Source of the DNA: Raillietiella orientalis
Taxonomy: Eukaryota
Length of the DNA: 64,000 nucleotides
Assembly (NCBI GenBank): GCA_036172245.1
Contig: JAYWIR010000007.1
Coordinates: forward strand, 3,534,001 to 3,598,000
Direction of reading: 5' to 3'
Position 1 is the stretch's first letter, and the number at the start of each line of letters is the position of its first letter. The position numbers and the translations under genes were made by a program. The notes under the pieces are model-generated. The model was not told the DNA's origin. It saw nothing but the letters and a program-made list of their open reading frames with translations, and ran no database searches. This document shows, piece by piece, positions 5,660 through 34,410 of this stretch.

Positions 5660-7325
5660 CCTGATGGCAGCGATCGCTTTCGAGCTTGGAAGATGGGGTG
5701 CTCCAGTATCGATGATTCGGCAGTGCAGATTTGCATGCTGATCGAGAATGCACGAGAAACCTGCGTTGTTGCACTCTGCAGAAGACACGGCCTCTCTCGA
5801 AAAACCAGTAGAGCTCGACTGTGGATGCAGAGGAAATGGCTTTCCAGTGGCGCGGGAGCACGTGAGCCTGGTTTCGGTGAATGCACTTTCCCATCGGAGG
5901 TTTGATGTCCTCTGTGCCTTCTTGGAGAATGGCACCTCCAGCGCTCAGAGCACCGAGCACAAATCGCTCCGGGGTGTTCGGTGACTCGAGGCGATAACTC
6001 AGCTTGAGGATTGGCAATGCGAAAGTGGAAATTATTTCGATAGTCTTCCAGAATCAGCATCCTGGAGTTCGACAGAAAACATTAGAAAATCTCGAAGGTT
6101 CTCTCGAAGGCAGTGCTTCGCGGATGAGTTTGCGTTAGCGGCTGGGCAACGGAACGACGCACTTTGGCCACCGCCTCCTGCTGGTACGCATTCATCGAGA
6201 AAGCCAGGTGAGTTGTTTCAAACGCAGGGGTTGAGGGAGTCAGCAGTCAGGAAGCTCGTGATGCGGGTGATAGCAGCAGAAAGAAACCAGGAAGAAGAAA
6301 GCTGTCCGTACCTGGCTTCAGATTTGCGCTTGCGTGGACGTTCGGTATGATGAGCGGTCCTCATGCCCCATTCCTGTTGTGAGAGTGCTGCGCTGTGGGC
6401 TTGGTGCCACGCAGCGTACTCACGTGCTGAGTCCTGCTGTGCCACATCTTCCGTTCGTGCACTTGCCGCGTTTGGCAGCAATCGCTGTGCATCACCTCGT
6501 ATCCCTTCTGGGATCGGTCAGTGCAGGGTGCCGGTCATGCGGGTCGCGTTCCGAACAGAGTAAAGCAGCGAAGAATGGCACCGAATGCAAAGGACCGGAA
6601 TCGGATTCTCCTGCACCCGACGTGGCCGACGTTCTGCCTGCGGCTGCCAGCCGATACGGATGCCTCCAGGTGAATTTGCTGGCGGTTGGAACCACGGTCT
6701 GGAGGAGCGATTTACCACCCGACACTCGGGATGAACTCGTGATGTTTTATCACGGAGGCATCCTGAGCGGCATGAGGAAGAGGTACTGGTCAGGCAACGC
6801 GCAGGACGAGATGTGCAAGACGTGTGGAGCCAGGGATACCCAACTCCACGTACTCACCTGCCTGACGCTGTGCCGAAAGGGGGCCAAGCTGAAGGAGGTG
6901 GCAGGCCTGCAGCGGGAGAACAACATGGAGATCCTGGCAGGGATGTTTGAAGGGAACGGCAACATTCCTCGATACAACCCAATGGTCCGCATCACCATCG
7001 CCTTCTTTATCACGAGCATCTTGATGAGAAGGGTAAAAACGCGGACTGGAATAAACAGTATGCTAGCTGTCCAAATCTTCAAAGGATTAGTGAAAAGGGA
7101 AATTGGGATAAGGAGCTGTGGACGTATTCCCATCTGGACGTACTATTATATCCTGCGAAGGATTCAGCAACATTGTCGAGTGAATTCTCCACACAAATTC
7201 AATGACTGGATGTCCGCAGACTAATCCTGAAAGTGAAAAACAGTAAAAACCAGTGACATTGGCCAGCACTTGCATGAATGAACGTAGAAAATAAATTCAC
7301 CCCACCGCATGTCGGACTGGGGAAA
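5660..7325 (+). mobile_element. 5'-truncated L1/Tx1-like LINE: decayed RT, open zf-RVT C-terminus, 3' hairpin
   Basis: ORF 6334-7224 contains VWRSDLPP...FYHGGIL...CKTCGARDTQLHVLTC. Upstream degenerate RT-like words (GVLQ, HSAEDT). Ends in AATAAA (7290) plus hairpin (7300-7322). Confidence 0.7.
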
Positions 7326-10643: not shown

Positions 10644-12580
10644 TTTCTCACCCGGTCACGCCGGGGCGTTTATTCCATATAATCATAAAGTAAAAATTAT
10701 ATAAAATAAACCAGTTGGGAACCAGGCTCCCAACCGACGACTGGACAAGGATCAAGAGAATTTTCCTGGAACGCAGGCCGGAATAACAGAGTTCGGAACG
10801 GTGTGTGGGGTCGGGGAAAAGAAACAGATAAAAACAAAAGAAAAACAATGAATGGGGGAGATCGGGACAAGGGTCTTTGGACTTGCTCTGGAAGGCACCG
10901 GGATATAAGTAATAGCACCGGGAGTTCAACAGAGCGAACGGGGATGGGATATAGGTGGGCGAGAGGTCACAGGGGTCACCGGATTACGACGGTCTGAAGA
11001 GTTTGTAAACCGGCGATGGATGCAGGCGATGTCCTCTTTCACCTCGTCACGAAGATGAGGCCGCCTTGCAGCCTTCTCCATGTATTCAGCTGCAAGCAGG
11101 TGTGCCTCCCTTCGCTGCGCTGACAACTCCAGGGCGTAGCGGCGGGCCTTGACGATGGCGCGAATGCAATACATGGTTGCGACAATCACGCCTACCGAAA
11201 GTCCATTCCTGCTGAAGAAGTGTCGCAGCACATCCATGGCGGTGCCTCCCTGCGGCATGATGGCTGAAATCGGCCTTCGCCGCAGTTCACGGAAGTTACC
11301 GCAGTCCAGCAAGAGGTGCGGAAAAGACTCGATCTCTCCGCACCTCAAACAGTTTGGCGAAGCAGCTCCCCCGGAAACGATGCTTCGCTGCCGATTACAA
11401 TGGAATCCCCCGTGTAAAAACAGCAGCACATCTTGTTTCCATTTTAAAGGGAACACGGAGCTGTCCAAACAAACATAGGGAACCACTACCTCTTCGGGGG
11501 CGCACTTAAAAGATCGCTTCACCGAAGCAGGCCCTTCTCCCGATTTCGAGGAGTGGCAGGTTGCACCAGCTCCTTTGTCGTCCAGCCACCAAGGAGCTTA
11601 GAAACTCCTGCAATTGTGAAGGAGAACTCCCATACTGCCGGTTGGCAACTGTCATTGCTTGCCCTAAGGGCAGACAGAGCTGCGGCGAGGGGTGTGGCGG
11701 ACAGACTTCTTGTCCTGCATGACTACGCCGAGGGGATCGCTCAAGAGAAGTCGCAGGCGTCGAAGATCTTCCTGGCGCATTCCTTCGGAAGCGGCCCACG
11801 ATGCAAAAGATTTCTGCCGCCATGCATTAATGTTCATGGGGCGGCAGGAAATCCAACTTTGGGCTTCCATCAGAGAGGACAGCTGCCTCAGCGGGAAGCC
11901 AAACCCTTTCCTGGTGTGCCGAAAGTGGGGCAGCAACGAAAGTAGTCCATCGCTGTCCGTGCAGCGTCTTAGTAGAAGGCGCGCGGGTAAGCACCACGGC
12001 GTACACCAGAGCTTGGCACAGAGCCGCAGCACACGAAGCTGCACCTGCAGCTCGCTGCTGTTCATGTCGAGGATGCCTGCATCCTGACGCGGCGTCACCA
12101 AGTCTGCATCCTGACGCGGCGCCACCAAGTCTTTCAGTCTGACCCGGGACCTTGCAGCACCCCACAACGTTTTGCGTAGAAACCGCTGCGCCCAGTTCTT
12201 GACTTCCTGGGGAAGTGGGCAAACAAAAAACGGGGGGCGGAGGAGGGGAGCACCGAAGGTGTTCCATATACTGGCCGGTTCCGGCAAGACGAACTCGCCA
12301 CAGGCGGATCCAGTCGGGCTGCCCCAATAAACAGAGATCGAATGGAGGAAGACGGGAACTTCGTCCCTTCGGGACGGGAAGATTCTTCGCTTTCCGGAGC
12401 CAGGGAAAGGAAGAAAAGGCTCGCCATCTTGCGGCAGGCCCGCCCGGTGATGGCGGGCACTTCACACACGAAGACGTCCGCAAAAGGCCTGCCGAGCGGT
12501 GCAGCGCGTCAACCGGTAAGAGGGGCGCCAATACGGTTGTCCAAGAAGCAGGTGGACGGCCGCAGATGCAGGGGCTTTGA
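10644..12580 (-). mobile_element. L1/Tx1 LINE derivative: post-RT region, zf-RVT, 3' UTR and hairpin; no RT core visible
   Basis: FLRKTLWG..RVRLKDLVAPRQDA (with a 27-bp tandem duplication at ~12077-12132) and FLHGGFHC...CLRCGEIESFPHLLLDC in ORF 10926-11522. Paralogous to 38300-39430. Confidence 0.75.
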
Positions 12581-14399: not shown

Positions 14400-15660
14400 G
14401 GTATTCCCACTCGAGAAGGTTTGTTTCTTTGCAGCCATCTGTTTGTGGTACTCGTTTAGGTTGTTGAGGTCACAGGTTTCACTAGGGCCGAGCTGAGTAG
14501 GTACGAATCTGTGCCGCATGCCGCAGAGCATCTTCGAAATAAAATTCCTCGTTTAGCTGAGGTGGTAGATTGTCGGATCCACAGAGAGAGCATCGATCTG
14601 GATTCCAAGGAAGGGGCTAGCTCGTTAGTGCAAGGCGTCTTCTTTTGACGCGCTGACCATGCGATTCGTGCTGGGAATTGGTACGAGAACAAAAGCAATT
14701 GCGATAAACCATGTTCTCCATCTCGTATCGTAAGTGGATTGAATCATCAGTGTCCGTGTTCCTAAATAGGGGATGCAGTTCTGGGGGTAACCGGGAACAG
14801 CAAAGTGGAACGTTCGGAAGTGCCTTTCATGCTCCTGTGCGCAGTCTCTGAGAGCCAAAGTTGAACTGCTCTTTGATTTCTGGATGATTAATAAAGCTGC
14901 AAAGCAAAAGTCGAAATTCCGATCCAACGAACTATTCAGCGGATCATGCACAGGAAGAAAATCGCCTATGTCTTCACCAAGCACAGCGTGAGAGTATTCT
15001 TCCCCTTTGCGGCATTTGGAACACGAGATGGTGGAAGAAAGAGCGCGTCGTGATTCCTGCAATTTCGCAAAGAGTCCCAGTCGAACTCGGGTCGGACTCT
15101 TCGCCGGGATGCCAACTACGGTGATGCCCAAACCTACTGAACCCCATAACCTCACGTACCAGCGCAAACCGTTGATAGATGGGTGAACGATAGATTTCAC
15201 TGCATCCATGTGCAGAAATCCAAGTGCATGCGGCTCGAGCGAACAACGTTGACGTCTTCGTTCCGATCGAACAGCCCTCGAAATGGAGGCAACGGAGATG
15301 GGAACCTCCTGTTTGTCTTTTGAATTTAGCGCAGGGAATACCGGAATGTTGAGGGGAGCTTCCTGCCTTGAACTCCGTCATGAATCCAAGGAGGCGCTGA
15401 CCGTTGTGTGCAGCTTCATTAGCATCGGGCAAGTTTCTATTCGTTCAAGGCCCCTCTGACAAAACGAAGGGCGTCTCACGATTCTTTCAAGGAAGCTGCA
15501 GACTGTTCCCTGTAGAGTGCTTGTCGTTGCGCCAGAGGTTCGAAGACCTGTGCTAGAGGAGCCTTCATTTGAACTGCTCAGCTCCGACAACAGACATTTC
15601 TCTTGCAGAGGATAGAAGTGGTGGACGTTCACATAAGCAGGAAGTGCGCGTGTGCACACT
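14400..15660 (-). mobile_element. Decayed L1-clade ORF2 C-terminal relic
   Basis: WGSVGLGI (GGLG-like) near 15130 and PWNPDRCSLCGSD (zf-RVT-like) near 14570-14610, in the expected order. Confidence 0.45.
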
Positions 15661-16249
15661 TTGGGAAAGCATGGAGGAGAGAATTTTTAGTAAAGGGTCA
15701 CGAAAATTTGCTGCTTTTCACTGAAGGAAGAAAGGAGTTACGGACGGTAAAGTATTCTATATGAGAAATGCACGCCTCGTGCAAGAGTGCAAGGTACAGT
15801 ATTGCAGCGAAGGAGATTCTTTGTTTTCAAGCTGAGGTGCAGATAGCTGAAACAAAATGGCATGTATGTCACTTTCAGTGTCATCCCCCCAAACTATCAT
15901 ATTTGAATGTGTCGAGGAGTGATGGGCGATGTATGAGATTTCCGATATGGTAAGGACACCAAAGATGCAATGCAGCGCAGCAAATTCTTACGACAGCTGT
16001 GTTCTGTGCATGGGAGCTGAATTGCGTTTTTGTCCTTCGTTGTCTTTTTGCTTCATGTTTTTATTTTTTTTGGTGAGGTTTCCTTTGCACCACCTGCTCT
16101 TTTCTCATTTCATCATCTTCAGGTTTTCGAATGACTTCTTGATTTTCTCTTTGACAAGTTTTTCGCATCCAGTGAGCCCACTTCCGTAAGTACATTTCTG
16201 GTTTCCACTTATCTCCTTAGATCTGCCGGCATTTTCAAGATTGGCTGCT

Positions 16250-17000
16250 GCATCTCGTCCGTTGTTTGCGCATTCGGACCACTGCAGTTATTTTTTATGC
16301 TCGAGCTTTCGATACCCCGGTATTGTGCAGACATTCCGTGGATGGCTGCATTTGTTGCAGCGTGCAGCTGGACATGCATCCACTCGATGTCTGCAGTTGC
16401 TGCCTACAAGACAAAAGTGGGGACTGCTTGCTATGCAGGACTTGAAAGTCGTGCGAGTAGGTCTCCCGTTGGTAGTGGCGTATAGTTTGATCTTGACAAG
16501 CGCTTCACCCGAGGTGTTTCCGAGCAAGTCTCCCGTTTGCTTCGATTTCCACGCAAACGGAGGTGCTCTCAGACGGTGTTTCGCTCCATCTCAGAGCTGA
16601 GGCCGAAAAAGTGGGCCGTCGTCGCATTTCCTTCATTCATTTTCTTCAACAAGCAACCGCTTAGGGAGATATCATCATCATTGACAGGACCATCGAGCAT
16701 TCTATCCTATGATCACAGTCTGCGTAAATGGTGAGTTTACCTGCAAGAGGGAATATCGTTCCCCCATCCCCCTCAAATCCACATTTTTTTTATAATGGTA
16801 TATATTTCTAGGTGGCGTGCCTTTGTCCTAACAACGCGACCGTTGACCGCATTTGGCGCAGTTATGGTCACAGTTTCGTAGAAGCTGCGTCCTGCTGCTG
16901 CAGGCGAGTTTACGTGCCTAACCATATGGTATGAGGCTTTGGGTGGCTCATCTCTTTCGCGGGCTGTCTCACTCTGGGCGTGTGTCTGATGAAGCTCTCT
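16250..17000 (-). mobile_element. Decayed LINE ORF1 relic related to 1-1000
   Basis: SGEALVKIKLY...PHFC...HRVDACPAARCNKC matches SGEAMV.MKLF...PTFC...HRVGSCPKARCSNC at 1-1000. Confidence 0.6.
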
Positions 17001-17691
17001 GCATCGACAGGCACTGCCCATTCTTCACTACATGGAAGGGTGGAAGATGTAAAGTTCACCGAGTTCTAGTGGCACAAACAGTAGAAAAACTGCCCTCAGA
17101 TGCACTTTAGTAGTTTGCACCTAACCAGTTTCAACCTAAACATTACGCTTCCCAGTAATGCGGTTTAGGGCCATCGCAGAGGTCAGCCTTTGGTGCAACA
17201 GCCGAGCATCACTCCGTCGTGATCAGGATCTCGAAACCAAGGTCGAGGGACCACAAGCTACAGAAGAATGCTCCAGAATACGGAATCTATAATGCGAATC
17301 TGTAAAACCTGCATAACGAATCATGGAGAGGCTTATACTTAGTGCCCGAAATGAACAGTAGGAATCCTCGACTATCGATTCAATCGTGCACACAAAATAC
17401 TAAACCGCGTGCACAACCCATGAATCCATTTCTTCATTCCCACTTTGTTTACAATTTGCGTGATTTCAGACCACCGTTCGGATGTTAATGAAATGATGAA
17501 TAGTAGAGTGAATTACGTTTACGGAGGCATACATTCGGGCTGTCGATGTAGCACCAGTCAGATGCAGCATCTCGTGCTGAATACGTGGTTCACGTACACA
17601 CGTACAGTCCTGTTCTTAAACTTACTAAACACAGGTGATCTGTTTTGCTGCCAAGTAAGCTGATTCCACATTCCTTCAGAATTACCATTTT

Positions 17692-18237
17692 TCATATTCC
17701 TAAAATCTTCCTCCTCTCCGGGATTCGTCGCAACAACATAGTTATTCTAAATATATAGTCTCCAGCTATTTCAGAATCCAACACAACCGACTCCTTTTGA
17801 TCAGCAAAAGTGTCCGCAAGAGGTTCCAAAGTTATCCTCACACCATACAACTTTACATACTTCAACATACTGGACTTTCCAGTCAGATTCCACAGTCCCA
17901 GCAACGTGCCCATCGTGCGGTTACGGAGATCGGTATGATACACAAAGCAACCAACATAATAACCTTCACTGCCAACAAGCCTCAACTCTTGACTAACAGT
18001 ATAAGCAGGCTTCGTAAAATCAAAATCCCTAAACCTAATACGCGCACCGGAATGCAACACCTTCCCAATCCAAGAGGAAGCACGTCCTAAATTGAGACGA
18101 TCATTAACACGCCTCCCAATTGAATTACGCTTACGATAATTACCAACAGAATGCAATACACGACGTCTACGACGTTATTCACGTAAAGAAACATTCCTGA
18201 GATCAGCACGATGACGTGCACGCGTAGCAACAGGCAT
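17692..18237 (-). pseudogene. Endogenous CRESS-DNA virus putative capsid gene (disrupted)
   Basis: ATG at 18237 gives MPVATRARHRADLRNVSLRE*RRRRRVLHSVGNYRKR (Arg-rich N-terminus, in-frame stop at 18175-18177), in frame with ORF 17692-18156. It contains KYVKLYGVRITLEP, similar to the Y.KI..VK....P motif of circo-like capsids, and is divergent from Rep. Confidence 0.6.
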
Positions 18238-18357
18238 CCTCACACCGCAACCTCTTGTATCCTAATGCATTCCAAAATGAAGAGAACAAAGAGAATACGA
18301 ACCCCCTGACCCCCTCACATTCCGCCAATTTGACACCGACTACGCAAAAACCACTTG

Positions 18358-18407
18358 GAAAGTGCAGAGGGTGACCCGAACCTCGGCACTTTCAAAACCG
18401 TATAAAA
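18358..18407 (+). promoter_or_regulatory. Intergenic stem-loop (candidate origin region) and TATA box upstream of viral rep
   Basis: GAAAGTGCaGAGG-gtgacccgaa-CCTCgGCACTTTC (13-bp stem, one mismatch), followed by TATAAAA at 18401-18407 and ATG at 18441. Confidence 0.5.
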
Positions 18408-18440
18408 CCAAAACACACACACACACCAAAGAGTTACAAC

Positions 18441-19415
18441 ATGCCGTACGCAAAGTGCACGCAGCGGTGCTTCACCTCCAACAACTGGACAACCGCAGAA
18501 GAAACAAGTACACAGGGAAGGTCACTTCGAAAAGAAAAACACGCAATCCTCGGTGAAGCAGGAAGCTCAACCGCTCATCTCCAGGGATGCTTCCAAACAG
18601 CAATACCTTCCACGATACCTCAGATAAAACGAATCCAACGTTTCTCAAGAGCTCCCGCCGAAACCGCCAAAGGAAATCCTCACCACAAAGAGACCAGCAA
18701 CCATGCGAAAGAGGCAGACTAGCTCCTGCTATACAGATCAAGTACATCGATTACAAGGACAAATGAACACAATGCATTTCAGATCATCGCATACAGAAAA
18801 AAAGGAAAGAACAGAAAAATATTTACGGGAAAACCAACCACAACCATTCGAAAAACAGAAAGCCTTCAACATCGACAGCATAAGACTCGGAAAATCCTAC
18901 TCTACAAACAATCCAATGATCCTCAAAAGATTACAACTATGGCAAAGAAAAACCTACATAGGCCTCATGCAAAGAGAACCCGACCACCGAAATACACTTT
19001 GGTACACCGACTACCAAGGAAGCTGGGGAAAAACCACAGCAGCTAAACATATCAAATGCGACGCACCGTACTTAACCAATCGCAAAAAGAGCGGCGCCGC
19101 CCACACGCGGAAGGGAGAAAAAATCATCATGCTGGACCTCCTCACACGACCACATCAACTACGGAATTATGGAAAGCCGATAAAACGGAATGCTGCGCTT
19201 CACTAAAACATCAATGTCACCTTAAATTACACGATCCACCTCGCTTCATCATCTTCCTCAACATGGACCGCTACTACGAGAAAATGGCAAGCGACCGCTG
19301 CACCATCCCTTATTCCACTGAAGATTTATTGGAACCAATGTCACCTGAGAATGGTATTTCACATGCCACTGCGCTGAGCATTTACGCGTTGAATCGAAAC
19401 CACGCTGCCGAATAA
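18441..19415 (+). pseudogene. rep: Endogenous CRESS-DNA virus Rep (HUH endonuclease + SF3 helicase), nanovirus/alphasatellite-like, frameshifted
   Basis: Motifs in the correct order across three frames: RCR I CFTSNN, RCR II HLQG, AETAKG..NHAKE (decayed RCR III), LWQ...PDHRNTLW.DYQGSWGKT (Walker A), IIMLDL (Walker B), INYGIMES.*NGM (B'), IIFLN (motif C), SDR (Arg finger). Confidence 0.9.
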
Positions 19416-19449
19416 TTGTCCACGAAAATCTCCCAGAAATCTTCCATTC

Positions 19450-20400
19450 AGTCTTTCTAAACGAGATGCCGGTGAGGATGCTCCACGCTCCTGAAGCAAT
19501 GTTCTGTTGCACCGTCTGACTTTGAAGTAGCACAGCTATTTCAACATGTTCCTGTCATCCACACCATCCACTTCATCCTTAGCTTTTGCAACATGGAAAA
19601 AAGGACAGATTGCACTGATGCGCAGCACACATCGGATGCACGCGCCTGAGCTGTTTTGTGCTTTGACAAGACACACGGATGCTCAAATATGCAGGTTGTC
19701 ATCACTTTGGGACTGCAGGAAGTGTTTCTCATCTCAACAACAGTATTCCTGTAAAACCATGCAGTCAACTATTAGGGAGACCTTCAGACGAGCAGACCGT
19801 GAGCAGCAAGCATACTGACGTTTCCCATCCCAATGTCACGACACCATGCAGTTTTCTAAAGTTTTGTCGCAAGCTGACACTTGAATTCTTGTCAAACACC
19901 TTTTTCTTTGTGAATGTCATCATGCATACGTAGATCAATCCCCATAAAAAATGAAAATGCTACCCATTTCAACTGTATCTCACTCTTCAATAAAAAACTT
20001 GGAAAGCCAAAATTGTTCGAAAGAATTTATTCATCTTGCAGCATCTAGTAAACACAGCTTTTCATTGACCAACATTCCAGTTCTACACAATCGACACGGA
20101 TAAATAACCATCAGCAAATCCAGATCAAAACACCATGAAGACGATTTCCTTTTCCTTTCCAGAACTTGACATTGGTGTTTAACATCTCCTCAAAATTCTT
20201 CTGGATTCATCTTAGGTACGGAAACGACGGGTTTCAAAAGCAATCTCCCAACTTTATTATCTGGCGTAGCATTTCCTCGAATATCTTTTTCCACGTAATT
20301 GAGCACTATGTCCAGCAGGATTTCCAAAGATAATGTGACATGTGCAATGTGGGTCAACTCAGACTGGCATTTCGTGGTCCTTTCCAAAGAGCGTTTGCTT
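19450..20400 (-). mobile_element. Possible decayed LINE ORF1-like relic
   Basis: HVTLSLEILL...GNATP weakly matches array-unit HVSLEESL...GTATP. CIRC...CP near 19600-19640. Confidence 0.3.
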
Positions 20401-21450: not shown

Positions 21451-21505
21451 CAGGAACCCACAACGACCGCTGCCCCTTGGCAAAGAACGTGGTCGCCAAG
21501 ATAAA

Positions 21506-24500
21506 CGAGCCCGCTGGCCGTGGCGGCCCACAGACGACCGGGGGAATCGCCGGGGCAACTCGGCCGACCGGAACTACTTCCAGATGAACCAGAACGCTTG
21601 CACTTTCACGCTTCAGACAACGAAGTGCGGAATGGGAAGCAAGGGAAGTGGGAACTTGCAAGGTGGGGAAGTATCCTAGGATTGAGGCTCGAGAAACAGG
21701 AAGGAAAAGCTCGCCTTAGAGCAACAGGCCCGCTCGGCGGTAGCGAGCGCTGAGCTCAGCAGGACGCACGGAAGAGGCGTGCCGGGGCAAACAGCGCCTC
21801 AACCGTCAAGAGGAGCGGTAACCTGGCAGCGGCATGTTCCGATGGGGGATCAGGGACCAAGCTGCGCATCCAGAAACTGGGAATTCCAATGTTGGGTGGT
21901 CGATCGTAGTGACTTCGAAGCTCACTCCACTTGGCACGCCAAGTGCAACTCTGGAGGAGGGAAAAGGAGAAAAGCGCATCACGGACTTTCGTCGAGGAGC
22001 TTCCTCGGGGGGAAGGTTAGCTCCCGAGGGGTCGCCGTGCCTGCGAGGACAGATTCGTCGAGATGTTCCTATAATGGTTTTTTGGCCAACTGAAGCGACT
22101 CTTCAAGGGACACGTGGGAAGACACAAAGCGAAGCATGGAACGCGGAGAGAGCCCGCGGGCCGTGGCGGCCCACAGACGACCGGCGGAATCGCCGGGGTA
22201 ACTCGGCCGACCGGAACTACTTCCAGATGCACTAGAACGCTTGCACTTTCACGCTTCAGACAACGTGAAGTGCGGACAGGGGGAAGCAAGGGAAGTGGGA
22301 ACTTTGCAAGGAGGGGAAGTATCCTAGGATTGGCTCGAGAAACAGGAAGGAAAAGCTCGCCTTAGAGCAACAGGCCCGCTCGGCGGTAGCGAGCGCTGAG
22401 CTCAGCAGGACGCACGGAAGAGGCGTGCCGGGGCAAACAGCGCCTCAACCGTCAAGGGGAGCGGCAACCTGGCAGCGGCATGTTCCGATGGGGGATCAGG
22501 GACCAAGCAGCGCATCCAGAAACTGGGAATTCCAATGTTGGGTGGTCGATCGTAGTGACTTCGAAGCTCACTCCACTTGGCACGCCAAGTGCAACTCTGG
22601 AGGAGGGAAAAGGGAGAAAAGCGCATCACGGACTTTCGTCGAGGAGCTTCCTCGGGGGGAAGGTTAGCTCCCGAGGGGTCGCCGTGCCTGCGAGGAGAGA
22701 TTCGTCGAGACGTTCCTATAATGGTGTTTTGGCCAACTGAAGCGACTCTTCAAGGGAAACGTGGGAAGACACAAAGCGAAGCATGGAACGCGGAGAGCCC
22801 ACTGGCCGTGGCGGCCCACAGACGACCGGCGGAATCGCCGGGGCAACTCGGCCGACCGGAACTACTTCCAGATGCACCAGAACGCTTGCACTTTCACGCT
22901 TCAGACAACGAAGTGCGGAATGGGAAGCAAGTAGAAGCGGGAACTTGCAAGGAGGGGAAGTATCCTAGGATTGGGGCTCGAGAAACAGGAAGGAAAAAGC
23001 TCGCCTTAGAGCAACAGGCCCGCTCGGCGGCGAGCGCTGAGCTCAGCAGGACGCACGGAAGAGGCGTGCGCCGGGGCAAACAGCGCCTCAACCGTCAAGG
23101 GGAGCGGCAAAATCTGGCAGCGGTATGTTCCGATGGGGATCAGGGACCAAGCAGCGCATCCAGAAACCTGGGAATTCCAATGTGGGGTGGTCGATCGTAG
23201 TGACTTCGAAGCTCACTCCACTTGGCACGCCAAGTGCAACTCTGGAGGAGGGAAAAGGGAGAAAAGCGCATCACGGACGTTCGTCGAGGAGCTTCCTCGG
23301 GGGGAAGGTTAGCTCCCGAGGGGTCGCCGTGCCTGCGAGGAGAGATTCGTCGAGATGTTCCTATAATGGTTTTTGGCCAACTGCTGACTCGGGCGGAAAC
23401 GTGGGAAGACACAAAGCGAAGCATGGAACGCGGAGAGCCCGCTGGCCGTGGCGGCCCACAGACGACCGGCGGAATCGCCGGGGCAATCCGGCCGACTGAA
23501 ACAACTTCCAGATGCACCAGAACGCTTGCACTTTCACGCTTCAGACAACGAAGTGCGCGGAATGGGAAGCAAGAAGGGACCGGTGTAAGGAGGGGAAGTA
23601 TCCTAGGATTGGGGCTCGAGAAACAGGAAGGAAAAGCTCGCCTTAGAGCAACAGGCCCGCTCGGCGGTAGCGAGCGCTGAGCTCAGCAGGACGCACGGAA
23701 GAGGCGTGCCGGGGGAACCAGCGCCTCAACCGTCAAGGGGAGCGGCAACCTGGCAGCGGCATGTTCCGATGGGGGATCAGGGACTACAGCGCATCCAGAA
23801 AACTGGGAATTCCAATGTTGGGTGGTCGATCGTAGTGACTTCGAAGTCGACTCACCTGGGCGCTGGGTGCAACTCTGGAGGAGGGAAAAGGGAGAAAAGC
23901 GCATCACGGACTAATGAAGAGCTCTCTCGGGGAAGGTTAGCTACTGAGGGGTCGCCGTGCCTGCGAGGAGAGATTCGTCGAGACGTTCCTATAATGGTTT
24001 TTTGGCCAACTGAAGCGACTCTTCAAGGGAAACGTGGGAAGACACAAAGCGAAGCATGGAACGCGGAGAGCCCGCTGGCCGTGGCGGCCCACAGACGACC
24101 GGCGGAATCGCCGGGGCAACTCGGCCGACCGGAACTACTTCCAGATGCACCAGAACGCTTGCACTTTCACGCTTCAGACAACGAAGTGCGGAATGGGAAG
24201 CAAGGGAAGTGGGAACTTGCAAGGAAGGGAAGTATCCTAGGATTGGGGCTCGAGAAACAGGAAGGAAAAGCTCGCCTTAGAGCAACAGGCCCGCTCGGCG
24301 GTAGCGAGCGCTGAGCTCAGCAGGACGCACGGAAGAGGCGTGCCGGGGCAAACAGCGCCTCAACCGTCAAGGGGAGCGGCAACCTGGCAGCGGTATGTTC
24401 CGATGGGGGATCAGGGACCAAGCTGCGCATCCAGAAACTGGGAATTCCAATGTTGGGTGGTCGATCGTAGTGACTTCGAAGGTCACTCCACTTGGCACGC

Positions 24501-27500
24501 CAAGTGCAACTCTGGAGGAGGGAAAAGGGAGAAAAGCGCATCACGGACTTTCGTCGAGGAGCTTCCTCGGGGGGAAGGTTAGCTCCCGAGGGGTCGGCGT
24601 GCCTGCGAGGAGAGATTCGTCGAGATGTTCCTATAATGGTTTTTTGGCCAACTGAAGCGACTCTTCAAGGGAAACGTGGGAAGACACAAAGCGAAGCATG
24701 GAACGCGGAGAGCTCCGCTGGCCGTGGCGGCCCACAGACGACTCGGCGGAATCGCCGGGGCAACTCGGCCGACCGGAACTACTTTCAGATGCACCACAAC
24801 GCATGCACTTTCACGCTCCAGACGACGAAGTGCGGAATGGGAAGCAAGGGAAGTGGGACCTTGCAAGGAGGAGAAGTATCCTAGGATTGGGTCTGGAGAA
24901 ACAGGAAGGAAAAGCTCGCCTTAGAGCAACAGGCCCGCTCGGCGGTAGCGAGCGCTGAGCTCAGCAGGACGCACGGAAGAGGCGTGCCGGGGCAAACAGC
25001 GCCTCAACCGTCAAGGGGAGCGGCAACCTGGCAGCGGCATGTTCCGATGGGGGATCACGGACCAAGCAGCGCATCCAGAAACTGGGAATTCCAATGATGG
25101 GTGTTCGATCGCAGTGACTTCGAAGCTCACTCCACTTGGCACGCCAAGTGCAACTCTAGAGGAGGGAAAAGGGAGAAAAGCGCATCACGGACTTTCGTCG
25201 AGGAGCTTCCTCGGGGGGAAGGTTAGCTCCCGATGGGTCGCCGTGCCTGCGAGGAGAGATTCGTCGAGATGTTCCTATAATGGTTTGTTGGCCAACTGAA
25301 GCGACTCTTCAAGGGAAACGTGAGAAGACACAAAGCGAAGCATGGAACGCGGAGAGCCCGCTGGCCGTGGCGGCCCACAGACGACCGGCGGAATCGCCGG
25401 GGCAACTCGGCCGTCCGGAACTACTTCCAGATGCACCACAACGCTTGCACTTTCACGCTCCAGACGACGAAGTGCGGAATGGGAAGCAACTGAAGTGGGA
25501 ACTTGCAAGGAGGGGAAGTATCCTAGGATTGGGTTTGGAGAAACAGGAAGGGAAAGCTCGCCTTAGAGCAACAGGCCCGCTCGGCGGTAGCGAGCGCGGA
25601 GCTCAGCAGGACGCACGGAAGAGGCGTGCCGGGGCAAACAGCGCCTCAACCGTCAAGGGGAGCGGCAACCTGGCAGCGGCATGTTCCGATGGGGGATCAG
25701 GGACCAAGCAGCGCATCCAGAAACTGGGAATTCCAATGATGGGTGTTCGATCGTAGTGACTTCGAAGCTCACTCCACTTGGCACGCCAAGTGCAACTCTG
25801 GAGGAGGAAAAGGGAGAAAAGGCATCACGGACTTTCGTCGAGGAGCTTCCTCGGGGGAAGGTTAGCTCCCGAGGGGTCGCCGTGCCTGCGAGGAGAGATT
25901 CGTCGAGATGTTCCTATAATGGTTTTTGGCCAACTGAAGCGACTCTTCAAGGGAAACGTGGGAAGACACAAAAGCGAAGCAGAACGGAGAGCCCGCTGGC
26001 CGTGGCGGCCTACAGACGACCGGCGGAATCGCCGGGGCAACTCCGGTCAGGACCGGAACTACTTCCAGATGCACCAGAACGCTTGCACTTTCACGCTTCA
26101 GACAACGAAGTGCGGAATGGGAAGCAAGGGAAGTGGGAACTTGCAAGGAGGGGAAGTATCCTAGGATTGGGGCTCGAGAAACAGGAAGGAAAAGCTCGCC
26201 TTAGAGCAACAGGCCCGCTCGGCGGTAGCGAGCGCTGAGCTCAGCAGGACGCACGGAAGAGGCGTGCCGGGGGAAACAGCGCCTCAACCGTCAAGGGGAG
26301 CGGCAACCTGGCAGCGGCATGTTCCGATGGGGGATCAGGGACCAAGCAGCGCATCCAGAAACTGGGAATTCCAATGTTGGGTGGTCGATCGTAGTGACTT
26401 CGAAGCTCACTCCACTTGGCACGCCAAGTGCAACTCTGGAGGAGGGAAAAGGGAGAAAAGCGCATCACGGACTGTCGTCGAGGAGCTTCCTCGGGGGGAA
26501 GGTTAGCTCCCGAGGGGTCGCCGTGCCTGCGAGGAGAGATTCGTCGAGATGTTCCTATAATGGTTTTTTGGCCAACTGAAGCGACTCTTCAAGGGAAACG
26601 TGGGAAGACACAAAGCGAAGCATGGAACGCGGAGCCCGCTGGCCGTGGCGGCCCACAGACGACCGGCGGAATCGCCGGGGCAACTCGGCCGACCGGAACT
26701 ACTTCCAGATGCACCAGAACGCTTGCACTTTCACGCTTCAGACAACGAAGTGCGGAATGGGAAGCAAGGGAAGTGGGACCTTGCAAGGAGGGGACGTATC
26801 CTAGGATTGGGGCTCGAGAAACAGGAAGGAAAAGCTCGCCTTAGAGCAACAGGCCCGCTCGGCGGTAGCGAGCGCTGAGCTCAGCAGGACGCACGGAAGA
26901 GGCGTGCCGGGGGAAACAGCGCCTCAACCGTCAAGGGGAGCGGCAACCTGGCAGCGGTATGTTCCGATGGGGGATCAGGGACCAAGCTGCGCATCCAGAA
27001 ACTGGGAATTCCAATGTTGGGTGGTCGATCGTAGTGACTTCGAAGCTCACTCCACTTGGCACGCCAAGTGCAACTCTGGAGGAGGGAAAAGGGAGAAAAG
27101 CGCATCACGGACTTTCGTCGAGGAGCTTCCTCGGGGGGAAGGTTAGCTCCCGAGGGGTCGCCGTGCCTGCGAGGAGAGATTCGTCGAGATGTTCCTATAA
27201 TGGTTTTTTGGCCAACTGAAGCGACTCTTCAAGGGAAACGTGGGAAGACACAAAGCGAAGCATGGAACGCGGAGAGCCCGCTGGCCGTGGCGGCCCACAG
27301 ACGACCGGCGGAATCGCCGGGGCACCTCGGCCGACCGGAACTACTTCCAGATGCACCAGAACGCTTGCACTTTCACGCTTCAGACAACGAAGTGCGGAAT
27401 GGGAAGCAAGGGAAGTGGGAACTTGCAAGGAGGGGAAGTATCCTAGGATTGGGGCTCGAGAAACAGGAAGGAAAAGCTCGCCTTAGAGCAACAGGCCCGC

Positions 27501-30500
27501 TCGGCGGTAGCGAGCGCTGAGCTCAGCAGGACGCACGGAAGAGGCGTGCCGGGGGAAACAGCGCCTCAACCGTCAAGGGGAGCGGCAACCTGGCAGCGGC
27601 ATGTTCCGATGGGGGATCAGGGACCAAGCAGCGCATCCAGAAACTGGGAATTCCAATGTTGGGTGGTCGATCGTAGTGACTTCGAAGCTCACTCCACTTG
27701 GCACGCCAAGTGCAACTCTGGAGGAGGGAAAAGGGCGAAAAGCGCATCACGGACTTTCGTCGAGGAGCTTCCTCGGGGGGAAGGTTAGCTCCCGAGGGGT
27801 CGCCGTGCCTGCGAGGAGAGATTCGTCGAGATGTTCCTATAATGGTTTTTTGGCCAACTGAAGCAACTCTTCAAGGGAAACGTGGGAAGACACAAAGCGA
27901 AGCATGGAACGCGGAGAGCCCGCTGGCCGTGGCGGCCCACAGACGACCGGCGGAATCGCCGGGGCAACTCGTGGATGCCAATCTACTTCCAGATGCAATT
28001 CAGGAACGCTTGCACTTTCACGTTTCAGACAACGAAGTGCGGAATGGAAGCAAGGGAAGTGGGAACTTGCAAGGAGGGGAAGTATCCTAGGATTGGGGCT
28101 CGAGAAACAGGAAGGAAAAGCTCGCCTTAGAGCAACAGGCCCGCTCGGCGGTAGCGAGCGCTGAGCTCAGCAGGACGCACGGAAGAGGCGTGCAGGGGGA
28201 AACAGCGCCTCAACCGTCAAGGGGAGCGGCAACCTGGCAGCGGTATGTTCCGATGGGGGATCAGGGACCAAGCTGCGCATCCAGAAACTGGGAATTCCAA
28301 TGTTGGGTGGTCGATCGTAGTGACTTCGAAGCTCACTCCACTTGGCACGCCAAGTGCAACTCTGGAGGAGGGAAAAGGGAGAAAAGCGCATCACGGACTT
28401 TCGTCGAGGAGCTTCCTCGGGGGAAGGGGTTAGCCCGAGGGTCGCCGTGCCTGCGAGGAGAGATTCGTCGAGATGTTCATATGGTTTTTTTGGCCAACTG
28501 AAGCGACTCTTCAAGGAAACGTGGGAAGACACAAAAGCGAAGCATGGAACGCGGAGAGCTCCGCTGGCCGTGGCGGCCCACAGACGACCGGCGGAATCGC
28601 CGCCGGGCAACTCGGCCGACCGGAACTACTTCCAGATGCACCAGAACGCTTGCACTTTCACGCTTCAGACAACGAAGTGCGGAATGGAAGCAAGGGAAGT
28701 GGGAACTTGCAAGGAGTGGAAGTATCCTAGGATTGGGGGCTCGAGAAACAGGAAGGAAAAGCTCGCCTTAGAGCAATAGGCCCGCTCGGCGGTAGTGAGC
28801 GCTGAGCTCAGCAGGACGCACGGAAGAGGCGTGCCGGGGGAAACAGCGCCTCAACCGTCAAGGGGAGCGGCAACCTGGCAGCGGTATGTTCCGATGGGGG
28901 ATCAGGGACCAAGCTGCGCATCCCGAAACTGGGAATTCCAATGTTGGGTGGTCGATCGTAGTGACTTCGGTGGTCACTCCACTTGGCACGCCCCACGTCG
29001 TCTGAGGAGGGAAAGGAGAAAAGCGCATCACGGACTTTCGTCGAGGAGCTTCCTCGGGGGAAGGTTAGCTCCGAGGGGTCGGTGTGCCTGCGAGGAGAGA
29101 TTCGTCGAGATGTTCCTATATTGTTTTTTTGGCCAACTTACGCGACTCTTCAAGGGAAACGTGGGAAGACACAAAGCGAAGCATGGAACGCGGAGAGCCC
29201 GCTGGCCGTGGCGGCCCACAGACGACCGGCGGAATCGCCGGGGCAACTCGGCCGACCGGAACTACTTCCAGATGCACCAGAACGCTTGCACTTTCACGCT
29301 TCAGACAACGAAGTGCGGAATGGGAAGCAAGGGAAGTGGGACCTTGCAAGGAGGGGAAGTATCCTAGGATTGGGGCTCGAGAAACAGGAAGGAAAAGCTC
29401 GCCTTAGAGCAACAGGCCCGCTCGGCGGTAGCGAGCGCTGAGCTCAGCAGGACGCACGGAAGAGGCGTGCAGGGGGAAACAGCGCCTCAACCGTCAAGGG
29501 GAGCGGCAACCTGGCAGCGGTATGTTCCGATGGGGGATCAGGGACCAAGCTGCGCATCCAGAAACTGGGAATTCCAATGTTGGGTGGTCGATCGTAGTGA
29601 CTTCGAAGCTCACTCCACTTGGCACGCCAAGTGCAACTCTGGAGGAGGGAACAGGGAGAAAAGCGCATCACGGACTTTCGTCGAGGAGCTTCCTCGGGGG
29701 GAAGGTTAGCTCCCGAGGGGTCGCCGTGCCTGCGAGGAGAGATTCGTCGAGATGTTCCGATAATGGTTTTTTGGCCAACTGAAGCGACTCTTCAAGGGAA
29801 ACGTGGGAAGACACAAAGCGAAGCATGGAACGCGGAGAGCCCGCTGGCCGTGGCGGCTTCACAGACGACCGGCGGAATCGCCGGGCAACTGCCGACCGAA
29901 ACTACTTCCAGATGCACCAGAACGCTTGCACTTTCACGCTTCAGACAACGAAGTGCGGAATGGGAAGCAAGGGAAGTGGAACTTGCAAGGAGGGGAAGTA
30001 TCCTAGGATTGGGGCTCGAGAAACAGGAAGGAAAAGCCTGCCTAGAGCAACAGACCCGCTCGGCGGTAGCGAGCGCTGAGCTCAGCAGGACGCACGGAAG
30101 AGGCGTGCCGGGGGAAACAGCGCCTCAACCGGCTTAAGGGGAGCGGCAACCTGGCAGCGGTATGTTCCGATGGGGGATCAGGGACCAAGCAGCGCATCCA
30201 GAAACTGGGAATTCCAATGTTGGGTGGTCGATCGTAGTGACTTCGAAACTCACTCCACTTGGCACGCCAAGTGCAACTCTGGAGGAGGGAAAAGGGAGAA
30301 AAGCGCATCACGGACTTTCGTCGAGGAGCTTCCTCGGGGGGAAGGTTAGCTCCCGAGGGGTCGCCGTGCCTGCGAGGACAGATTCGTCGAGATGTTCCTA
30401 TAATGGTTTTTTGTCCAACTGAAGACACTCTTCAAGGGAACCGTGCGAAGACACAAAGCGATGCTTTGCTCGCGGAAGGTCCTCTGGCCCTGTCGGCCCT

Positions 30501-30879: not shown

Positions 30880-31190
30880 TGGGTTTCTTTTTTTTTTCTT
30901 TCTTTCTGTTTTTTTTCTTTTCTTTTTTTGTCTTTTCTTTTTTTGTCTTTTCTTTTTTTGTCTTTTCTTTTTTTTTCTTTTCTTTTTTTGTCTTTTCTTT
31001 TTTTGTCTTTTCTTTTTTTTTTCATCGATTTTTTTTTCTTTTCGTATCTTTTTTTTCTTTTCTTTTCATTTTTTTTCTTTTTTTTGCTTTTGATTTTTTT
31101 TCGTTGCTTTTGATTTTTAATTCGTTTTTTTTTACGTTTCTATATTTTTTATTTCTGAGATTCATTTTTCCATTTTCTTTTGTTTAAAAA
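30880..31190. repeat. T-rich simple repeat (~TTTTTTTGTCTTTTC)n between the two arrays
   Basis: Directly visible. Confidence 0.85.
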
Positions 31191-31489: not shown

Positions 31490-34410
31490 TGGGGGGAGAA
31501 GGGGAGGACATGGGGATGTTCATTTCAAATAGTCATGAACGGGGTGGACTGCTCCTGGAGGGAGCAGCGGGTGCGAAACCGCGTGGTCGTGGTTGACAGA
31601 TCGACTGGTGTGCTGGATGGATCCAGAAGTGAAGCGAACGAACCAACTGTTTCAAGTGGCCTACCTTCACGACCGGTTGTCGTCTTGTGGCTGTCTCCAG
31701 GGATGGATGTATCCTGATCCCGCAGCTTCCAGAGGTGGATGAGGCGTGTTTTTCTTTCTGTTGCTTTTTTTTTTTGTTTTCTCCCTTTTCTTTTTTTTTT
31801 TTTTTTTTCACCTGGAAATGTTGAGGGCACCCATGTAAAGAAAGGCACGCCAATCGTTCCCCAGACAACCGATGCTGTGTGCAATTGGGAGGAGCACGAA
31901 GATCTCCCATATGCACAATCATGATTATTTCTTAGATCCCCTTCCTTCCGGAGAACCGATCGAAATCTTTAAACCATGAAATGACGTTGTTGACCGCTGG
32001 CTGGAATGCTTTCCGGGCCTTGGGATACCGCGGGGAAAAAGGAGGCAGAAACTGTGTAATATGATGCCAGAGGGATCGCAATGCCGCGTCCACAAAGTCG
32101 AACTTCATAACAAGAAGACAATTTGGGGAAATCGAAACGAAATAAATTCGGAACGTCCACGTGGATGGGGGGAGATGGGAGGACTTGGGGATGTTCATTT
32201 CCGATGGTCATGGAGGGCAAGGATTGCTCCTGGAGGGAGCAGCGGGTGCGAAACCGCGTGGTCGGGGTGGACAGATCGACGGGTGTGCTGGATGGATCCA
32301 GAAGTGAAGCGAACGAACCAACTGTTCCAAGTGGCGTACCTTCACGACCGGTTGTCGTCTTGTGGCTGTCTCCAAGGATGGATGTATCCTGATCCCGCAG
32401 CTTCCAGAGGTGGATGAGGCGTGTTTTTCTTTCTGTTGCTTTTTTTTTTTTGTTTTCTCCCTTTTCTTTTTTTTTTTTTTTTTCACCTGGAAATGTTGAG
32501 GGCACCCATGTAAAGAAAGGCACGCCAATCGTTCCCCAGACAACCGATGCTGTGTGCAATTGGGAGGAGCACGAAGATCTCCCATATGCACAATCATTGT
32601 TTCAAGAAAATCCCCTTCCTTCGGAGAACCGATCGAAATCTTTACAAAACCATGAAATGACGTTGGTGACCGCTGGCTGGAATGCTTTCCAGGCCTTGGG
32701 ATGCCGCGGGGGAAAAAGGAGGCAGAAACTGTGTGATATGATGCCAGAGGGATCGCAATGCCGCGTCCACAAAGTCGAACTTCATAACAAGAAGACAATT
32801 TGGGGAAATCGAAACGAAATAAATTCGGAACGTCCACGTGGATGGGGGGAGATGGGAGGACTTGGGGATGTTCATTTCCGATGGTCATGGAGGGCAAGGA
32901 TTGCTCCTGGAGGGAGCAGCGGGTGCGAAACCGCGTGGTCGGGGTGGACAGATCGACGGGTGTGCTGGATGGATCCAGAAGTGAAGCGAACGAACCAACT
33001 GTTCCAAGTGGCGTACCTTCACGACCGGTTGTCGTCTTGTGGCTGTCTCCAGGGATGGATGTATCCTGATCCCGCAGCTTCCAGAGGTGGATGAGGCGTG
33101 TTTTTCTTTCTGTTGCTTTTTTTTTTTGTTTTCTCCCTTTTCTTTTTTTTTTTTTTTTTTCACCTGGAAATGTTGAGGGCACCCATGTAAAGAAAGGCAC
33201 GCCAATCGTTCCCCAGACAACCGATGCTGTGTGCAATTGGGAGGAGCACGAAGATCTCCCATATGCACAATCATTGTTTCAAGAAAATCCCCTTCCTTCG
33301 GAGAACCGATCGAAATCTTTACAAAACCATGAAATGACGTTGGTGACCGCTGGCTGGAATGCTTTCCAGGCCTTGGGATGCCGCGGGGGAAAAAGGAGGC
33401 AGAAACTGTGTGATATGATGCCAGAGGGATCGCAATGCCGCGTCCACAAAGTCCAACTTCATAACAAGAAGACAATTTGGGGAAATCGAAACGAAATAAA
33501 TTCGGAACGTCCACGTGGATGTGGGGAGATGGGGAGGACTTGGGGATGTTCATTTCCGATGGTCATGGAGGGCAAGGATTGCTCCTGGAGGGAGCAGCGG
33601 GTGCGAAACCGCGTGGTCGGGGTGGACAGATCGACGGGTGTGCTGGATGGATCCAGAAGTGAAGCGAACGAACCAACTGTTCCAAGTGGCGTACCTTCAC
33701 GACCGGTTGTCGTCTTGTGGCTGTCTCCAAGGATGGATGTATCCTGATCCCGCAGCTTCCAGAGGTGGATGAGGCGTGTTTTTCTTTCTGTTGCTTTTTT
33801 TTTTTTTTTTTCTCCCTTTTCTTTTTTTTTTTTTTTTTTTCACCTGGAAATGTTGAGGGCACCCATGTAAAGAAAGGCACGCCAATCGTTCCCCAGACAA
33901 CCGATGCTGTGTGCAATTGGGAGGAGCACGAAGATCTCCCATATGCACAATCATTGTTTCAAGAAAATCCCCTTCCTTCGGAGAACCGATCGAAATCTTT
34001 ACAAAACCATGAAATGACGTTGGTGACCGCTGGCTGGAATGCTTTCCAGGCCTTGGGATGCCGCGGGGGAAAAAGGAGGCAGAAACTGTGTGATATGATG
34101 CCAGAGGGATCGCAATGCCGCGTCCACAAAGTCGAACTTTATAACAAGAGGACAATTTGGGGAAATCGAAACGAAATAAATTCCGAACGTCCACGTGGAT
34201 GGGGGGAGATGGGGAGGACCTGGGGATGTTCATTTCCGATGGTCATGGAGTGCAAGGATTGGTCCTGGAGGGAGCAGCGGGTGCGAAACCGCGTGGTCGG
34301 GGTGGACAGATCGACGGGTGTGCAGGATGGATCCAGAAGTGAAGCGAACGAACCAACTGTTCCGAGTGGCCTACCTTCACGAGCGGTTGGCTTCTTGTGG
34401 CTGTCTCACT
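31490..34410. repeat. Tandem array of ~4.3 units of ~677 bp, resembling a LINE 3' region
   Basis: ggggatgttcattt recurs at ~31512, 32187, 32864, 33542 and 34222. Each unit has a poly-T tract and a hairpin. Confidence 0.95.

Follow-up and report, generated by a model that had tools for sequence, protein, structure and literature searches.

Structure of the element

The window analysed here is a 64,000-nt stretch of Raillietiella orientalis DNA (assembly GCA_036172245.1, contig JAYWIR010000007.1, positions 3,534,001 to 3,598,000). At positions 17692-19415 of this window lies a 1,724-bp element composed of a Rep pseudogene on the plus strand, a 203-nt spacer and a divergent arginine-rich open reading frame (ORF) on the minus strand. 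This is a complete two-gene ambisense layout of CRESS-DNA viruses (single-stranded DNA viruses whose circular genome encodes a Rep), opened between the 3' ends of the two genes and now disabled. We consider it very probable that the element is a genuine, dead, single-copy endogenous CRESS-DNA virus in a eukaryotic, animal-like chromosome. The Rep homology, the collinear Rep parts distributed over three frames, the breaks between and within them, the hairpin and the single-copy state are established directly, a second copy being absent within the 64 kb. The features of the element are as follows.

18237-17692, minus strand: capsid-like ORF, 181 codons plus terminal stop (ATG 18237-18235, in-frame stop 18177-18175, end 17694-17692)
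18238-18440, no strand assigned: intergenic region, 203 nt, between the divergent start codons, read from the sequence
18355-18396, plus strand: hairpin with 16-nt arms (18355-18370 and 18381-18396, 88% complementary) and a 10-nt loop
18401-18407, plus strand: TATAAAA box, 34 nt upstream of the Rep ATG
18441-18908, plus strand: Rep part 1, HUH nuclease plus linker, frame nt = 0 mod 3, identified by profile matches and motifs I and II
18468-18485, plus strand: motif I, CFTSNN, frame nt = 0 mod 3
18576-18587, plus strand: motif II, HLQG, frame nt = 0 mod 3
18910-19140, plus strand: Rep part 2, superfamily 3 (SF3) helicase with Walker A GSWGKT and Walker B IIMLDL, frame nt = 1 mod 3, identified by a 36.9-bit match
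19018-19035, plus strand: Walker A, GSWGKT, frame nt = 1 mod 3
19123-19140, plus strand: Walker B, IIMLDL, frame nt = 1 mod 3
19139-19195, plus strand: Rep part 3 (INYGIMES, stop, NG), frame nt = 2 mod 3, identified by a 5.7-bit match
19154-19177, plus strand: INYGIMES, frame nt = 2 mod 3, followed by the stop 19181-19183 and then NG
19191-19415, plus strand: Rep part 4 (motif C region PPRFIIFLN, then KMASDR and the C-terminus), frame nt = 0 mod 3, identified by a 6.8-bit match
19248-19262, plus strand: IIFLN (motif C), frame nt = 0 mod 3
19290-19298, plus strand: SDR, frame nt = 0 mod 3

The Rep pseudogene begins with an ATG at 18441 on the plus strand and ends with a terminal stop at 19413-19415, an extent of 975 nt that corresponds to full length. 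All seven peptide words on which the initial annotation had built its Rep call are present at the places and in the order that it reported, distributed over three frames, and GSWGKT, IIMLDL and IIFLN align with Walker A, Walker B and motif C, respectively, of the Rep profile described below. The reading is interrupted by two in-frame stops (18720-18722 and 19181-19183) and by at least three frameshifts, located at ~18880-18955, at 19140-19154 and near 19195-19206. With the additional stop in the capsid-like ORF, the stops and frameshifts noted earlier are borne out. Furthermore, in the alignments to both Rep profiles no tyrosine is found at the place of motif III (Y-C-x-K), which is what would be expected of a decayed copy. 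Neither the Rep nor the capsid-like ORF is functional in its present state, because the former has three frame changes and two in-frame stops and lacks the aligned catalytic tyrosine, and the latter has one in-frame stop. Most likely, the element has no present function. As a side observation, the codons for N-Y-G occur twice at 19154-19170, 8 nt apart and in two different frames. Since the +1 and +2 frames both read NYG here, the exact site of the second frameshift is blurred.

The hairpin in the spacer is the best inverted repeat of the region 17300-19800. Its core (18358-18393), folded as DNA, reaches -10.6 kcal/mol, a value equalled by none of 500 shuffles and by 24 of the 10,661 36-nt windows of the 64 kb. 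The intergenic region folded as a whole gives a z-score of -1.93, with 10 of 200 shuffles folding as well, and a search of the 64-kb window against Rfam returned no family. The hairpin sits where circovirus-like genomes keep their origin, and it is consistent with being a remnant of a replication origin, for which it is a candidate. Thus, the intergenic stem-loop and TATA box of the initial annotation were recovered, and its overall description of the locus, a disabled CRESS-DNA virus copy with Rep and capsid-like ORF diverging from a common hairpin, is supported by the reading frames, the Rep profiles and the hairpin fold.

Affinities of the Rep

To obtain relatives of the helicase, the word NYG..E..KNG of the window, written as degenerate DNA, was used as the pattern for a scan of IMG/VR. 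The scan returned 67 stretches, ~37 of which are CRESS Reps that also carry the C-terminal words of the window (P..v.vfaN......S.DR). This number comprises 34 true rule-based flags and three Reps recognized by eye; one further flag (L027) was false, and the remaining stretches are chance matches in large phage-like contigs. Thirteen of the ~37 Reps lie on single-ORF contigs of 997-1111 bp, which is the size of nanovirus components, and the others come from 2.0-3.4 kb contigs. The ~1-kb set is here called nanovirus-type on account of its size and single ORF, from which the family name is deduced. Accordingly, the suggestion that NYG..E..KNG and PD.R...W mark a nanovirus-type helicase is supported.

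A profile of 331 positions was built from 31 of these Reps (the nano-type profile), leaving out L027 and Reps with fewer than 120 residues upstream of the word. It matches the window in four pieces, all on the plus strand:

nt 18447-18908, plus strand: profile positions 22-170, 20.2 bits
nt 18754-19173, plus strand: profile positions 121-262, 36.9 bits, E 8.3e-13
nt 19139-19195, plus strand: profile positions 254-272, 5.7 bits
nt 19191-19349, plus strand: profile positions 271-323, 6.8 bits, E 0.0012

The four pieces are collinear over three frames and together cover positions 22-323 of the 331. The pieces with the Walker A/B motifs and with the C-terminus are independent of the word that was used for fishing. 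Against single Reps, the helicase piece reaches E 1.8e-6, and it shows 27-33% identity to 13 of them. The same piece, used in a word-seeded search against 5.8 billion proteins, yielded three candidates, none of which scored.

The nuclease was approached with a 93-aa piece, which was compared by an exhaustive HMMER search with 1,835,955,588 representative proteins (E <= 0.001). Four proteins passed this threshold, and one of them, P0003 (299 aa), is a genuine single-stretch match (E 2.3e-4, query 9-81 against protein 10-84, 41% identity). P0003 carries the domains Viral_Rep (1.3e-21) and RNA_helicase, and its source contigs are 1.8-2.2 kb long. The other three proteins, P0001, P0002 and P0004, are long bacterial repeat proteins; they were rejected as artefacts because they are matched by four to seven short stretches and have no Rep domain. 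When P0003 was compared with the window by tblastn, nt 18468-18677 were matched with E 7e-9, and all other matches in the window had E >= 0.14. Its 848 relatives include named Circovirus species as well as Rep-like genes of lancelet and fish genomes. A circovirus-like Rep profile made from the best 120 of these 848 relatives matches a single place when the window is translated in all six frames, namely nt 18450-18878 (30.5 bits, E 6.2e-11). This alignment crosses the stop at 18720-18722 into the linker, and therefore the first frame comprises nuclease and linker. The same profile does not match the helicase in any frame of the window. A scan of IMG/VR with the nuclease piece confirmed no relative.

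Both Rep profiles match the six-frame translation of the 64 kb at the element alone (E 6e-11 and 8e-13), with the next best scores being negative, and the likeness is therefore beyond chance. Judged by significant similarity over both domains in their proper order, the Rep is of the Cressdnaviricota type, with a predicted HUH nuclease followed by a predicted SF3 helicase. The database comparison proposed in the initial annotation, a search and profile match for a CRESS Rep, was thus successful for this gene (E 2.3e-4 in the protein library; 6e-11 and 8e-13 with the profiles).

The position of the helicase was examined in a tree of 46 rows, comprising 31 nano-type Reps, 14 circovirus-like Reps as the outgroup and the window sequence with X at each break. 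In this tree, the ~1-kb set forms one clade (100/99) and the window lies outside it, within a clade of the 2-3.4 kb contigs (91/91), where it groups with L048, L019, L031 and L060 (91/93). The best identity of the window helicase to any member of the set is 35% over 119 columns, and its branch has a length of 1.43, as expected for a pseudogene; because of this long branch, the exact sister is unsure. Forcing the window into the ~1-kb clade costs 13.6 log-likelihood units, with a borderline p-value of 0.047 in the approximately unbiased (AU) test. The nuclease tree (45 rows, with L002, L006, L029, L042 and P0047 left out for want of a motif II anchor) has no resolution except for the ~1-kb clade (100), which again does not contain the window. 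The phylogenetic part of the earlier proposal therefore holds for the helicase, which falls among uncultured 2-3.4 kb CRESS genomes (91/91 and 91/93), and not for the nuclease, whose tree is without resolution.

These trees bear directly on the possibility that the element is a true nanovirid fossil, that is, the DNA-R of a multipartite virus next to an ORF that is unrelated or represents a co-integrated DNA-S. In favour of this view, the helicase words are common to the Reps of the 13 ~1-kb contigs, and the pairwise helicase scores are slightly highest to ~1-kb contigs (38.5 bits for L062, compared with 35.0 for L015 and 33.5 for L001). By contrast, in the helicase tree the window falls among the 2-3.4 kb contigs and not in the ~1-kb clade (100/99), and the forced placement carries the cost given above. 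Moreover, the residues around Walker A in the window (W.YD..G..GK) agree with those of the 2-3 kb set; the corresponding form in the ~1-kb set is W.YG. Finally, the two ORFs share a single 203-nt promoter and hairpin region, which is a monopartite layout. A nanovirid origin is thus very improbable. The label 'nanovirus-like Rep' given in the initial annotation stands as a description of the helicase type and falls as a statement of family, the helicase lying outside the ~1-kb clade (100/99; AU p 0.047). The notion of an orphan virus group was not sustained either, as ambisense relatives with a nanovirus-type helicase (L060 and L040) are already present in IMG/VR.

A chimeric Rep, in which the nuclease is circovirus-like and the helicase of the nano type, was also entertained. 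Hints in this direction are that the nuclease is scored higher by the circovirus-like profile (38.1 bits versus 20.2 for the nano-type profile, with 28.6 on the same 1.1-kb region) and that the helicase is matched by the nano-type profile alone. Chimerism is possible and is not established, because the nuclease tree leaves the nuclease unplaced. It would be ordinary, since 71% of unclassified CRESS Reps are reported to be chimeric in the cited text of PMC5923481, where groups basal to Nanoviridae are described as well.

The minus-strand ORF and the strand bias

The minus-strand ORF has 160 open codons after its in-frame stop at 18177-18175. Its first 52 codons include 16 for arginine, and only 2 of the 12,772 52-codon windows in the six frames of the 64 kb are as rich, so the divergent arginine-rich ORF of the initial annotation is indeed present. 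In terms of Atlas features, which come from a language model, its nearest neighbours are Cressdnaviricota clusters (0.94, with 191 shared features), the overall range being 0.92-0.94, and two further clusters close to it carry Circo_capsid on 29-31% of their members. After removal of the arginine tail, the nearest clusters are those of Cressdnaviricota, of Circo_capsid (16% of members) and of tombusvirus-type, astrovirus and anellovirus coat proteins, at scores of 0.90-0.93 and with one bacterial cluster alongside. On the basis of its place and orientation, its arginine-rich N-terminus and the Atlas look-alikes, the ORF is probably a capsid gene.

Several results count against the view of the element as a viral copy with both genes. 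For the Rep, Pfam gave no family for the six ORF pieces at E <= 1, and a PDB sequence search left the nuclease piece, the helicase piece and the capsid-like ORF without a match at E <= 10. The match of the third profile piece is circular, because the same word had been used to fish the comparison set. The canonical nonanucleotide has no exact match in the element and none in the hairpin loop, and its near-matches are at chance level (21 seen versus 22.9 expected), again with none in the loop. For the capsid-like ORF, when the element was shuffled 2000 times, an open frame of at least 160 codons appeared in 83 cases, and openness alone is therefore weak evidence. The Atlas recognition value was 2172 and thus fell short of the mark from which high scores can be taken as good evidence, so that the Atlas likeness is a lead and not proof. 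A scan of IMG/VR with the ORF confirmed no relative, and a word-seeded protein search gave 22 candidates, none at E <= 10. In comparisons with the fetched loci and 58 non-Rep ORFs of small contigs, nothing survived multiple testing, the best values being E 0.003-0.008 among 58 queries. A metagenome scan with the helicase alignment recovered three loci, none of them with a capsid like that of the window. The single-sequence AlphaFold2 prediction had a mean confidence (pLDDT) of 33.8, and the model is unusable. At the ends of the element, no contig of the sequencing run X1, described in the next section, bridges either junction by at least 31 nt, and the best one reaches 12 nt past the left end. 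The database matches anticipated for both genes were thus obtained for the Rep and not for the capsid-like ORF, which had no alignment-based relative in any search.

An alternative is that the Rep alone is viral and that the minus-strand ORF, lying in decayed or host DNA, is open by chance. The failure of every search to find a sequence relative of the ORF, the unusable fold and the 83 shuffles with frames of this length all speak for it, as does precedent: the Rep-only state is the common one among fossils, with 302 Rep-derived against 3 capsid-derived matches in the survey text cited (PMC3198968). Against it, a spacer of 203 nt separates the start of the ORF from the Rep ATG, the two diverge as Rep and the second ORF do in L060 and L040, and the arginine content at its N-terminus is matched by 2 of 12,772 windows of the 64 kb. 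The Atlas, moreover, points to Cressdnaviricota, Circo_capsid and other jelly-roll coat clusters both with and without the arginine tail (0.92-0.94), and the compositional bias described below spans the ORF as well as the Rep and stops near the end of the ORF. We therefore regard a Rep-only fossil as improbable and the identification of the ORF as a capsid gene as the better account.

The plus strand of the element (17700-19400) is G-poor and A-rich over the capsid-like ORF, which is antisense there, over the spacer and over the Rep, which is sense. The GC skew ranges from -0.21 to -0.39 and the AT skew from +0.18 to +0.41. In the left flank both skews are ~0; in the right flank the AT skew is ~0 and the GC skew is -0.17. 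The compositional breaks at ~17.7 kb and ~19.4 kb coincide with the ends of the two ORFs. Furthermore, none of the 13 related CRESS genomes used for comparison has as strong a bias (GC skew -0.12 to +0.20, AT skew 0.02 to 0.21). A single process, C-to-T change on the minus strand, would give both skews. Amino-acid changes relative to the nano-type profile include 28 of the G-to-A type and 15 of the reverse, which is a weak signal. It is conceivable, if rather doubtful, that the element ties the uncultured CRESS group with a nanovirus-type helicase to an animal host and that its bias reflects APOBEC-like cytidine deamination of the viral minus strand. Such deamination, if real, would be a host restriction acting on single-stranded DNA before or at integration.

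Host context and comparison with known viruses

Three coding regions identify the surroundings of the element. A 390-codon open exon at 43806-44978 on the minus strand matches mammalian pyruvate dehydrogenase phosphatase 1 over its full length (E 1e-90; PP2C), an eIF6 exon lies at 41706-42107 on the plus strand (Pfam, 1.4e-16), and a YTH exon lies at 57160-57783 on the plus strand (2.9e-11). To judge from these matches, the window is eukaryotic nuclear DNA and fits an animal. The element is contiguous with its flanks in the window, and the host exons are 22 kb away. The embedding in eukaryotic DNA proposed at the outset is thereby supported by the PP2C/PDP-like, eIF6 and YTH exons. By contrast, the collinear host repeats that were taken as a further sign of old integration do not abut the element: the left flank (14500-17691) has no non-self match within the window, and in the right flank repeats begin only at 21507, at the start of a satellite.

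The reads available for checking come from one DNA-type sequencing run (X1), in which 0.14 of the sampled words are present with a depth of ~2 and which is possibly from the assembly's own sample. Its contigs correspond to parts of the left flank and of the element, in the latter with 0-1 differences and no gaps; segments that they do not cover are uninformative. One short contig spans 18994-19195 gap-free and differs there at a single letter. This segment includes one frameshift site and one stop; since the contig reproduces both breaks, they are not errors of this assembly alone. An assembly artefact, in which free virus or contaminant DNA was misjoined to host contigs and the frameshifts are indel errors of long reads, could draw on the unbridged junctions and on the presence of a single copy of the element in the window. 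Such an artefact would, however, have to accommodate three in-frame stops besides the frameshifts, the loss of the motif III tyrosine at the aligned place, the recurrence of the broken segment 18994-19195 in a contig of run X1 and an identity that is low to every known Rep. Moreover, neither among 5.8 billion proteins nor in IMG/VR was a close relative encountered, as would fit an old copy that has decayed but would not fit a live contaminant. The disrupted frames favour a fossil over a live contaminant, and a misassembly is accordingly very unlikely.

No terminal inverted or direct repeats and no target duplications beyond chance flank the element. An 18-nt pair (17694-17711 and 19428-19445) has 78% identity, and a nonamer-like word occurs at 17677-17685. 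Terminal redundancy, or opening at the origin, was considered from this likeness of the ends and rejected, because 198 of 500 shuffles score as high. The lack of repeats is also relevant to the idea that the locus is a Rep-bearing mobile element or a host gene domesticated from a CRESS Rep. Co-opted or transposon-carried Rep-like genes have been described in eukaryotes, according to the cited text of PMC3198968, and so the idea has precedent. Here, however, the Rep frame is broken, and the Rep is therefore not a working gene; terminal inverted or direct repeats beyond chance are lacking, and the 64 kb hold no second copy. A mobile element or a domesticated gene is very improbable. The source of the dead viral copy would have been a monopartite ambisense CRESS virus, nearer to the uncultured 2-3.4 kb genomes than to Nanoviridae or Circoviridae proper. 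A replicative form or a product of rolling-circle replication may have been linearised in the 3' intergenic region, and the linear DNA may then have been captured by double-strand-break repair or end-joining in the germ line of the host. After insertion, the element would have decayed by neutral drift.

Other parts of the window are rich in repeats. The satellite occupies 21500-30140 and consists of tandem units of ~640 bp with a GC content of ~0.59 and a constant positive GC skew. Its copies are 91-98% alike, with matches at 22150, 22795, 23435, 24068 and onwards to 29837; the unit is longer than the longest period (500) of the tandem-repeat tool. Directly upstream of it, the segment 20700-21500 is very A-rich on the plus strand (AT skew 0.56-0.72). 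A T-rich low-complexity array at 30884-31169 is followed by a second repeated unit at 31500-34450, and one long ORF text recurs there on the minus strand (31969-32601, 32208-33278, 32885-33562 and 33563-33958). Long ORFs that are retroelement-like by eye lie in GC-rich stretches at 36394-37369 (minus strand), 10926-11597 (minus strand) and 6274-7224 (plus strand); none of the three has a Pfam family at E <= 0.001.

Rep fossils of circular single-stranded DNA viruses are known from animals, fungi, plants and protists, and those in animal genomes have been treated under the names CEVs and CVe (Liu et al. 2011, PMC3198968; Dennis et al. 2018, PMC6069186; Rosario et al. 2018, PMC6186406). As far as these sources are cited here, the known elements resemble the present one in being Rep-derived, residing in eukaryotic chromosomes, often bearing stops and frameshifts and falling outside established families, and a 'nanovirus-like' fossil clade outside known families is already described in PMC3198968. 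Unlike most of them, the element has retained a capsid-like ORF next to the Rep, with the native ambisense arrangement preserved and the intergenic hairpin in place. The 2011 survey counts 302 Rep-derived and 3 capsid-derived among 305 matches (PMC3198968), and the portion of the 2018 survey cited here gives no new capsid-derived element (PMC6069186). PMC6186406 nevertheless reports a fossil from a nematode in which Rep and capsid are both present, so that, going by these texts, the two-gene state is uncommon and not new.

Among exogenous viruses, the closest comparison is with the uncultured CRESS genomes of 2-3.4 kb, namely the IMG/VR contigs behind L060, L048, L019/L031 and L001/L061/L032/L029. 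They have in common with the element the words PD.R..W, G..GKT, NYG..E..KNG, P..v.vfaN and S.DR, and their helicases are 27-35% identical to that of the window. In L060 and L040 the Rep and an arginine-rich ORF are divergent, as in the element, whereas in L001 and L029 Rep and Cap are on one strand. The 2-3.4 kb relatives further differ from the element in having a canonical TAGTATTAC-type hairpin, which the element lacks, in their capsids, which are 190-300 aa long and have no detectable likeness to the ORF of the window, and in their genomes, which are 0.3-1.6 kb longer than the 1,724 bp of the element. As an aside, L001 (IMG/VR, 2168 bp) carries the same canonical-nonanucleotide hairpin at ~58 and ~2105; the contig therefore overlaps itself, as for a circular genome of ~2.05 kb.

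Two named families resemble the element in part. The master Reps of Nanoviridae, as represented by the single-ORF contigs of ~1.0-1.1 kb whose family is taken from that size and gene content, have the helicase type and the C-terminal words in common with the element. Nanoviridae are, however, multipartite, with one gene per ~1-kb circle, whereas in the element Rep and capsid-like ORF lie 203 nt apart on either side of one intergenic region; in addition, both the helicase (100/99) and the nuclease (100) trees place the element outside the clade of this size. Circoviridae, as described in the cited part of PMC6069186, have an ambisense two-gene genome of ~1.7-2.1 kb with the hairpin between the 5' ends, which is like the layout of the element, and the best nuclease match, P0003, has named Circovirus relatives. 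In contrast to Circoviridae, the element has no circovirus-type helicase match, no Pfam Circo_capsid match (E <= 1) and no nonanucleotide.

Since 2010-2011, Rep fossils have been reported from many animals, a nanovirus-like clade among them, and the element leaves the knowledge of this kind of fossil unchanged. CRESS fossils nevertheless belong to the small number of firm connections between metagenomic CRESS genomes, which run into the thousands, and actual hosts. The element would give a host to a set of uncultured 2-3.4 kb genomes that have a nanovirus-type helicase without being multipartite plant viruses. Furthermore, because it keeps gene order, spacer and hairpin, unlike Rep-only fossils, it is usable for dating by means of orthologous sites and for questions of how such genomes are opened and inserted.

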